Shown: piece by piece, positions 22,897 to 38,532 of the stretch
Layout: every line of letters begins with the position of its first letter
Numbering within the stretch: the stretch's first letter is position 1
NCBI RefSeq assembly: GCF_003334785.1
Contig: NZ_QOWV01000006.1
DNA: 64,000 nt
Direction: 5' to 3' (one strand)
From: Escherichia coli
GTDB lineage: Bacteria; Pseudomonadota; Gammaproteobacteria; Enterobacterales; Enterobacteriaceae
The notes under the pieces: model-generated
The model's input: the letters and a program-made list of their open reading frames with translations, nothing else
Told to the model about the DNA's origin: nothing
Databases searched by the model: none
Made by a program: the position numbers and the translations under genes

Positions 22897-24397
<1,501 letters not shown>

Positions 24398-24494
24398 TGT
24401 TGACTCCGAATGCTGGTTATCTATCCAGTGTAACAGGCGGGAAGCGATTAAAAAAGAGGCGGGTCGATGACAAAGGTTACACCGTCTGACGTGC

Positions 24495-37110: not shown

Positions 37111-37701
37111 TTAGTATTCAACCTGATGCTTAATAAGCCGATGAAACTGGATCTGCAAGGTATTGATCATTTGCGATGACCAACGAACAGCGCTGTTCTC
37201 GGGTAATGAATGGGGCATCCATACCGACCAGACAAATAATGCCATGCAGATAAAACGTTCCAGTTGGTTGCCCTTTTGGGGAACCAGGATAGGCAAGCGG
37301 AAACGCCAGCGGCATGGCCAGAGCAGGGGAACACCGGCGGGTGTCAGCATATCGGCAAGTATGTGGCTCAAATAACCCAGCACCATTCCTTGTAGCGCAT
37401 CAGCCGGAATGAACCAGCCTTCCGGAACCTTAAGGTAAAAGGTTGCCAGCAGCGCAAATACCGCCAGCAGACTGTGGGTAAAACCACGATGCCCAAAAGC
37501 GCGGGCGATCGGTTTTGATATCCATTTTAATCGCTGCCCAAGAAACGACTTTGGGTGATCGATGTCCGGTAACAAACACGTCAGGATTGCGGAAGGGACA
37601 ATATGCCACCAGTCACCCTGTGCCAGCACGGGCGTCAGCTCGGCATTTTTGGCAAATACCGCACAAGCAATAGAAAAGAGAAGGTGACCTTCCGCCGTCA
37701 T
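37111..37701 (-). CDS. ydjM: LexA-regulated inner membrane protein (metal-dependent hydrolase-like)
   Basis: 196-aa product from ATG at 37701 (MTAEGHLLF) within ORF 37111..37713; LexA boxes immediately upstream. Confidence 0.85.
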   Translation of the reverse strand: MTAEGHLLFSIACAVFAKNAELTPVLAQGDWWHIVPSAILTCLLPDIDHPKSFLGQRLKWISKPIARAFGHRGFTHSLLAVFALLATFYLKVPEGWFIPADALQGMVLGYLSHILADMLTPAGVPLLWPCRWRFRLPILVPQKGNQLERFICMALFVWSVWMPHSLPENSAVRWSSQMINTLQIQFHRLIKHQVEY

Positions 37702-37715
37702 GATAAAACTCACTA

Positions 37716-37753
37716 AACTGTCGATACGTACAGTATAGGATTTTTATACAGTG
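37716..37753 (-). promoter_or_regulatory. Tandem LexA (SOS) boxes upstream of ydjM
   Basis: CTGTcgatacgtACAG at 37718..37733 is a perfect CTGT-N8-ACAG; adjacent second box (minus-strand cactgtataaaaatcctata, 37734..37753) has a degenerate distal half. Confidence 0.65.
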
Positions 37754-37863
37754 CACGGAAGTGGTGACGGTGTAACTCTTTCTCTTAAATTGACGATTAA
37801 TCCGTCAGTTGAATGCAATTTCAGATAAAGAACCAGGGGCAGCGAGATCACTGCCCCTGGTCA

Positions 37864-38532
37864 TTAACCGAGAAGGTCTTTTGCGGTGAGTTCTGTCAGC
37901 GATGAGAGTTTGACGTCTGCTAATACAAAACGTGGATCATTTTGCGCTTCTGGCGCAGGAACGACGATGGAACGCATGCGGGCTGCTTTAGAGGCGATCA
38001 TGCCATTTACCGAATCTTCCAGCGCTACGCAGGTCAGAGGGTCAACGCCCAGTTTTGCTGCGCAGTCGAGATATACTTGCGGATGCGGCTTGCTGTAAGG
38101 CAGTTTTTCGGCCGAGGCGAGGGCATCGAAACTGTCGCGTAAGTCAAACATGGTCAACACTTTTTCCAGCATATGTAGTGGTGACGCGGAGGCCAGTCCC
38201 ACCAATAAACCTTGTTCTTTGCATAACGCAACGGCTTCGCGCACGCCTGGTAATAATGGACGTGTCTCTTCAACCAGTGAAATGGCACGGGCAATAACCC
38301 GTTCTACTACTTCCTGACGGCTTGGCCCATTCCACGGTTGCCGGGCGTACCAAAGATCGACCACCATATCGATGCGTAAACCTAAGGTGTCCGGCAGCTC
38401 GTTACGACGGGAGATATCCACCCCCAGGCTTGCCATCACATCCAGTTCGGCTCGATCCCATAAAGGTTCTGAGTCGATAAGTAATCCATCCATATCAAAA
38501 ATTGCAGCAAGAATCTGACGCGGGGTTGACAT
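37864..38532 (-). CDS. yniC: HAD-family sugar phosphatase (2-deoxyglucose-6-phosphatase, hexitol phosphatase B)
   Basis: 222-aa ORF with HAD motif I (FDMDGLLIDSEP). Confidence 0.92.
   Translation of the reverse strand: MSTPRQILAAIFDMDGLLIDSEPLWDRAELDVMASLGVDISRRNELPDTLGLRIDMVVDLWYARQPWNGPSRQEVVERVIARAISLVEETRPLLPGVREAVALCKEQGLLVGLASASPLHMLEKVLTMFDLRDSFDALASAEKLPYSKPHPQVYLDCAAKLGVDPLTCVALEDSVNGMIASKAARMRSIVVPAPEAQNDPRFVLADVKLSSLTELTAKDLLG

Follow-up and report, generated by a model that had tools for sequence, protein, structure and literature searches.

Upstream of ydjM in Escherichia coli lie two adjacent sequences that resemble binding sites of LexA, one a perfect palindrome and the other with a single good half, and the question raised by this locus is whether the two together form the SOS operator of the gene or whether the weaker one, or even the pair, has another explanation. 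The window analysed here, a stretch of 64,000 nucleotides, is E. coli chromosome, and the ~1.6 kb around the boxes matches 5424 of the 5426 complete E. coli genomes. Taken together, the evidence makes it very probable that the two adjacent LexA-binding sites are the SOS operator of the ydjM promoter. The tandem LexA operators of ydjM have been known since 2000 and are an ordinary feature; because both have already been published, neither the feature nor its interpretation is new. As a discovery, the finding thus has little weight, and recent transcriptomes confirm ydjM in the LexA regulon.

The ydjM gene and its two LexA boxes

The gene order hxpB (yniC)-ydjM-tcyP (ydjN) is that of MG1655 at 1.809-1.812 Mb, reverse-complemented. 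The ydjM coding sequence, defined by its open reading frame and by annotation, occupies 37111..37701 on the minus strand and encodes 196 amino acids from an ATG at 37701, which is the length of MG1655 ydjM (NP_416242.6, also 196 amino acids). A GAG-type Shine-Dalgarno sequence is located within 37709..37713 on the minus strand. An in-frame GTG at 37713 was considered as the start codon of ydjM and rejected; RefSeq takes the ATG, and because the GTG is not conserved in the orthologues, the ATG was retained as the start.

The proximal LexA box, the 20-mer TACTGTACGTATCGACAGTT at 37716..37735 on the minus strand, ends 14 nt before the ydjM ATG. Its core, CTGTCGATACGTACAG at 37718..37733, is a perfect CTGT-N8-ACAG and the sole exact match to this pattern in the window; 16 nt separate the core from the ATG, the A of which is 17 positions away from the core edge. 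The distal, weaker LexA box is the 20-mer CACTGTATAAAAATCCTATA at 37734..37753 on the minus strand, which consists of a CTGT left half, an AT-rich spacer and a right half that reads CCTA where ACAG or CCAG would be expected, and it therefore holds a single consensus half-site. The two 20-mers share 2 nt (TA), with 18 bp between their centres; together, they take up ~38 bp, between 14 and 52 nt ahead of the ydjM start codon. On the gene strand, the sequence upstream of ydjM reads ...GAGTTACACCGTCACCACTTCCGTG CACTGTATAAAAATCCTA TA CTGTACGTATCGACAG TT TAGTGAGTTTTATC ATG. The preliminary description of this DNA had placed a perfect CTGT-N8-ACAG box at 37718..37733, 17 nt upstream of the ATG, within a feature spanning 37716-37753; this was borne out, in that the match is unique, the distance is that counted from the core edge to the A, and the span is exactly that of the two 20-mers. 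It had also stated that the perfect box was directly followed by a weaker one. The adjacent weaker box stands, both by its heterology index of 10.52 and by the literature, whereas "followed by" has to be read as further upstream, ydjM being on the minus strand.

YdjM, described at that stage as a membrane protein of poorly known function, is still a poorly characterised inner-membrane protein, putatively a metal-dependent hydrolase by annotation. It belongs to its family by two profiles, matching Pfam PF04307 over residues 1-158 (E = 2.4e-35) and the NCBIfam equivalog NF008651 "metal-dependent hydrolase" with 374 bits, above the cutoff of 216. In the standard list of SOS genes, ydjM is entered as "inner membrane protein" (PMC6590174). 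A transcriptome study of TisB expression chose ydjM plus CpxR-dependent genes for follow-up, and after TisB expression, the CFU of the ydjM deletion were not significantly different from those of the wild type (bioRxiv 10.1101/2024.02.22.581605). The operator finding does not bear on the function of YdjM.

On the upstream side, the hxpB stop codon is at 37864, and the intrinsic terminator hairpin of hxpB (yniC) occupies 37831..37862 on the minus strand, with a 14-pair stem containing 9 GC pairs and a T-rich tail. In Escherichia, the control region of ydjM reaches upstream as far as this terminator. Among the loci aligned, the strong hxpB hairpin and a spacer of ~60 bp were seen in Escherichia only; in most other genera, the hxpB stop lies ~25 nt before the conserved block discussed below, and no matching hairpin is visible as judged by eye. 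Given this short spacer and the lack of a visible hairpin, transcription running on from hxpB into the LexA boxes is conceivable in those genera. IS903B (IS5-like) insertions in the top BLAST matches were considered as disruptions of the operator and rejected, since they sit inside hxpB. In several E. coli strains (e.g. T16R), IS903B splits hxpB at the equivalent of ~38180, and the ydjM operator is intact.

Box scores and published SOS control

The bare CTGT-N8-ACAG pattern is not significant by itself, as one exact match was observed against 0.67 expected per window and 53 of 100 shuffled sequences contained one or more; a position-weighted index was therefore used. The matrix for this heterology index (HI) rests on 19 classical LexA operators of E. 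coli, ydjM being left out, and on the Berg-von Hippel/Lewis formula. In the 16 MG1655 promoter regions concerned, each of the 19 reference operators was present without a mismatch ahead of its gene, and the computed HI correlated with the published HI quoted in PMC11228462 at r = 0.88. With an HI of 9.81 for the proximal and of 10.52 for the distal box, the pair takes ranks 2 and 3 among the ~128,000 20-mers on both strands of the window, rank 1 being the cho box. Scoring of both boxes by heterology index was among the checks proposed in the preliminary description, and the two values fall inside the leave-one-out range of the 19 accepted operators, from 1.06 (umuD) to 12.98 (polB), with ruvA (9.45), ftsK (9.46) and dinB (10.17) close by. 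The penalty of the distal box comes almost wholly from TA in place of the invariant AG, and the HI probably understates this half-site defect because the pseudocount caps the penalty.

In first-order Markov simulations, 0.27 sites with an HI of 9.81 or less and 0.5 sites with an HI of 10.52 or less are expected per window, and an adjacent pair (15-25 bp apart) occurred in 0 of 300 simulated windows. Real sequence was sampled as well: 102 kb of MG1655 DNA contained two sites with an HI of 10.53 or less outside known SOS promoters. In view of these two background sites, a lone site of such an HI is unconvincing; an adjacent pair beside a start codon, unlike a lone site, is convincing. The background sites, TGCTGTTTATTAAACCAGAA (HI 8.15, MG1655 ~1,228,203) and TGCTGTACGCTCATCCAGCG (HI 10.49, ~1,929,399), have scores like those of weak LexA sites, fall within ycgM and yebE by locus coordinates, and were taken as a gauge of false positives.

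The ydjM pair is not the sole SOS operator of the window. The known cho/ydjQ LexA box, CACTGGATAGATAACCAGCA at 24411..24430 on the minus strand, has an HI of 7.99 and is separated by 13 nt from the GTG at 24397 with which cho begins. Like the proximal ydjM box, it is a gamma-type LexA box shortly before the start of an SOS gene; unlike the ydjM boxes, it is single, has CTGG and CCAG half-sites, and precedes a gene for a DNA-repair nuclease and not for a membrane protein.

Previous studies have already placed LexA at ydjM. A review of LexA motifs (PMC4951493) gives the tandem LexA sites at E. coli ydjM as "experimentally reported", after Fernandez de Henestrosa et al. 2000, and a regulon reconstruction (PMC4576408) quotes exactly the distal 20-mer as a further LexA site of b1728. 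The Salmonella ydjM (STM14_1605) is preceded by a pair of SOS boxes at 14 and 32 nt from its ATG, with HI of 9.12 and 12.85, and is induced 2.11-fold by nalidixic acid (PMC8072944). The published ydjM (b1728) operators are thus the same two 20-mers at the same gene, and the Salmonella distances of 14 and 32 nt match those found here. The published HI of the proximal box is 9.0 (PMC11228462) against 9.8 here; such small differences from published values arise because the reference matrices differ, and nothing of substance separates the two descriptions.

As for expression, AZT raised ydjM 2.5-fold, and the transcript was 8.6-fold lower in the non-cleavable lexA3 (PMC11228462). Under ciprofloxacin, ydjM mRNA rose by log2 1.59 at 10 min and by log2 2.61 at 50 min (PMC11002266). 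From these papers, ydjM is an accepted SOS gene, induced by damage via LexA cleavage. The preliminary description had spoken of tight SOS repression; SOS control agrees with the literature, whereas "tight" was an interpretation, as the measured induction ratios are moderate and the E. coli proximal box is weaker than those of most relatives.

Conservation and the standing of the distal box

The footprint was compiled from one genome per species and comprised 80 Enterobacteriaceae loci with YdjM 84-99% identical, or 81 loci with the window; Escherichia, Citrobacter, Salmonella, Enterobacter, the Klebsiella-group, Kosakonia, Atlantibacter and other genera were included. The alignment was anchored on CCTATACTG, which occurs once per locus, and contained 75 distinct promoter sequences. 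Across these sequences, conservation extends from ~75 nt to 14 nt before the ATG, while the third codon positions of ydjM are mostly free (mean majority fraction 0.64; 6 of 100 invariant). The anchor CCTATACTG is invariant in 81 of 81 loci, and so are the CTG(T/G) and CAG of the proximal box, whose central spacer is variable; fixed half-sites around a variable spacer are the pattern that would be expected of a LexA site. In keeping with this, the proximal box is a gammaproteobacterial LexA operator of the TACTG(TA)5CAGTA type, with CTG and CAG 10 bp apart.

The layout reaches beyond the Enterobacteriaceae. An Erwinia contig and one further contig keep both boxes, the proximal one with an HI of 7.8 and the distal one with values from 9.6 to 10.7, and a Pantoea contig keeps the proximal box together with a distal half-site (CTGG) that is 1 nt out of register. 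With half-sites that are fixed or vary between CTGT and CTGG, an invariant CCTATACTG and a layout found also in Erwiniaceae, the operator is conserved beyond neutral expectation.

Box strength is less uniform than box position. Orthologous proximal boxes have a median HI of 6.5, and that of E. coli, at 9.8, is among the weakest. The proximal spacer is ACGTATCG in Escherichia (HI 9.8) versus ATGAATTG in most other genera (HI ~6.1), and two G/C substitutions in the spacer explain most of the higher proximal HI of Escherichia. That the E. coli proximal box scores weaker than those of its relatives is of descriptive value. Within the species, 5423 of 5426 complete E. coli genomes carry the 111-bp promoter, 4278 of them with an identity of at least 99%. 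The complete genome of E. coli NIPH17_0036 (NZ_AP024561.1 96565..96668) has a 7-bp deletion (AAATCCT) inside the distal box and promoter spacer, at the equivalent of ~37738..37744 in the window. This deletion, which may be genuine or an artefact of assembly, would destroy the spacing of the TTCCGT-17-TATACT promoter candidate described below and place the distal CTGTATAA directly against the proximal box.

The distal box lacks one of the two half-sites of a LexA operator, as CCTA stands on its right in 84 of 84 loci, and a second CAG half-site was found at this position in none of them. The best surviving alternative is accordingly that the proximal box alone is the operator, and that the distal "box" is promoter spacer and -10 element with a CTGT in it, conserved for RNA polymerase. 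The right half would fit this, being CCTATA in all 84 loci and never CAG, with its TATA part of an invariant TATACT, but the distal CTGTATAAAA, which carries the CTGT half-site, is in register in 79 of 81 loci. The CTGT is absent from the other two, and in the Pantoea contig it is shifted by 1 nt with the proximal box kept. RegPrecise apparently has just one ydjM site, whereas two boxes were counted in the Salmonella study (PMC8072944) and the review reports experimental tandem binding at ydjM (PMC4951493). Sites with an HI of 10.5 or less occur about once per 50 kb of real E. coli DNA, which favours a lone proximal operator; recN, which has a like strong-plus-weak pair with a 2-nt overlap, speaks against it. 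Weighed in this way, a lone proximal operator is unlikely.

Because CTGT is lost in 2 of 81 loci and shifted in Pantoea, the distal site would be dispensable or less constrained. In the Pantoea contig, the distance from GTTACA to TATACT is unchanged at 33 nt despite the shifted distal half-site, which suggests that the promoter frame may be more constrained there than the distal LexA half-site. In the preferred reading, that of two LexA sites in one operator, the distal box qualifies by score and by literature as a half-site operator that is probably neighbour-dependent, an auxiliary site probably helped by the proximal dimer. The conservation of a strong-plus-weak pair at an 18-bp offset, like that of recN boxes 2 and 3, argues that the weak half-site may well be functional.

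The closest likeness is that of recN, whose boxes 2 and 3 are also a strong palindromic and a weak box with a 2-nt overlap and centres 18 bp apart. The recN boxes leave gaps of 26 and 8 nt to the start codon, those of ydjM gaps of 32 and 14 nt, and the weak box is gene-proximal at recN and distal at ydjM. At recN, moreover, a third box, a strong one, is located another 22 bp upstream, whereas ydjM has the pair only, and with AZT, recN is induced 19-fold versus 2.5-fold for ydjM (PMC11228462). The lexA gene, like ydjM, has tandem LexA boxes beside its start codon; unlike those of ydjM, they do not overlap but leave a 1-nt gap, at a distance of 21 bp, and each has two recognisable half-sites (leave-one-out HI 5.4 and 5.8). 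With 18 bp between its centres, the ydjM pair falls within the geometry of tandem operators (~21 bp or less). At colicin promoters, overlapping strong and weak SOS boxes cooperate (PMC4951493); these dual boxes, to which the ydjM pair may be likened, belong to plasmid-borne toxin promoters, unlike ydjM.

The promoter and the conserved upstream block

A candidate -10 element, TATACT (5/6), is located at 37732..37737 on the minus strand, where it spans the junction of the two boxes inside the invariant CCTATACTG; it is also kept in Erwinia and Pantoea. A candidate weak -35 element, TTCCGT, is found 17 nt upstream of it at 37755..37760 on the minus strand; in the 81 loci, most positions of CTTCCG reach 90% conservation or more, and Erwinia and Pantoea also have the leading TT. 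TTCCGT-17-TATACT appears to be the best candidate for the core promoter. A consensus sigma-70 scan of 37600..37900 returned no promoter at threshold, so that this assignment rests on hexamer matches and conservation. Neither ydjM nor a coordinate near 1,810,1xx is present in the text of the Cappable-seq and SMRT-Cappable-seq supplements. With no mapped start found and no promoter from the scanner, we infer promoter occlusion from the position of the boxes, which cover the TATACT candidate.

In undamaged cells, a LexA dimer would occupy the palindromic proximal box (CTGT-N8-ACAG), and a second dimer would occupy the distal site with its one good half-site and AT-rich spacer. Occupancy of the distal site would probably be aided by contact with the proximal dimer, a cooperativity that we infer. 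The distal box would fill the promoter spacer and the first four -10 bases, while the proximal box would take in the last four -10 bases and then extend over the start expected near 37725; LexA on both sites would keep RNA polymerase off the ydjM promoter. Upon DNA damage, RecA filaments would bring about LexA self-cleavage, the operator would empty, and ydjM would be transcribed.

LexA could instead act as a roadblock, with the true promoter lying upstream and the boxes at or after the start; the promoter would then be CTGAAA-17-ATTAAT, GTTACA-17-CACTGT or read-through from hxpB. Genomic SELEX with RpoD holoenzyme pointed to a promoter between yniC and ydjM, proposed to be CTGAAA-17-ATTAAT at 37824..37796 (PMC3946193), but these hexamers are not conserved beyond Escherichia and ATTAAT is without the key -11 A. 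The highly conserved GTTACA (37776..37771) precedes (C/T)ACTGT by exactly 17 nt; the -10 of this alternative would lie within the distal box, and it is TACTGT in most other genera, whereas the CACTGT of E. coli is a poor -10. Read-through would be favoured in most other genera, where the hxpB stop is ~25 nt before the block and an Escherichia-like hairpin is not seen by eye, and it would be opposed in Escherichia by the strong hxpB terminator. As the TATACT (5/6) of the preferred promoter is invariant across two families, the roadblock arrangement is quite improbable. That the box match is chance with no regulatory role, for which the 0.67 exact matches expected per window might speak, is effectively refuted by the position of the box directly upstream of a start codon, by the second adjacent site with no such pair in the 300 simulations, by conservation in 80 species, and by the published LexA-dependent expression of ydjM (PMC11228462).

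Just upstream of the LexA boxes, a conserved block of 16 bp, GAGTTACACCGTCACC / GAGTTACAnCGTCACC, is located at 37763..37778 on the minus strand. Its consensus is GAGTTACA(C/A/G)CGTCACC, at least 90% conserved at most positions in the 75 distinct promoter sequences. It is as strongly conserved as the boxes across Enterobacteriaceae and Erwiniaceae, with GTTACAGCGTCAC kept in Erwinia and Pantoea. The exact motif GTTACANCGTCAC occurs once in the window, and elsewhere in it only two matches with one mismatch were found, which fall inside coding DNA by conversion to MG1655 coordinates and which we take to be chance. In most genera other than Escherichia, TTGTGACAAAG precedes the block, and the two form the imperfect palindromes TGTGAC-N5-GTTACA and GTTAC-N3-GT(C/A)AC.

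To our knowledge, the block fits none of the CRP, CpxR, OmpR and PhoB motifs. It may be a -35 or alternative -35 element (GTTACA-17-CACTGT/TACTGT) together with an upstream or UP promoter element. A more tentative and rather doubtful possibility is that it is the operator of a second regulator, in which case ydjM would integrate the SOS response with another signal, e.g. envelope or membrane stress.

For the LexA boxes themselves, the strong-plus-weak layout with its 18-bp offset is fixed across two enterobacterial families. In S. aureus, LexA also regulates a gene with a YdjM motif (PMC11442139), and SOS control of the YdjM family would therefore not be limited to enterobacteria.
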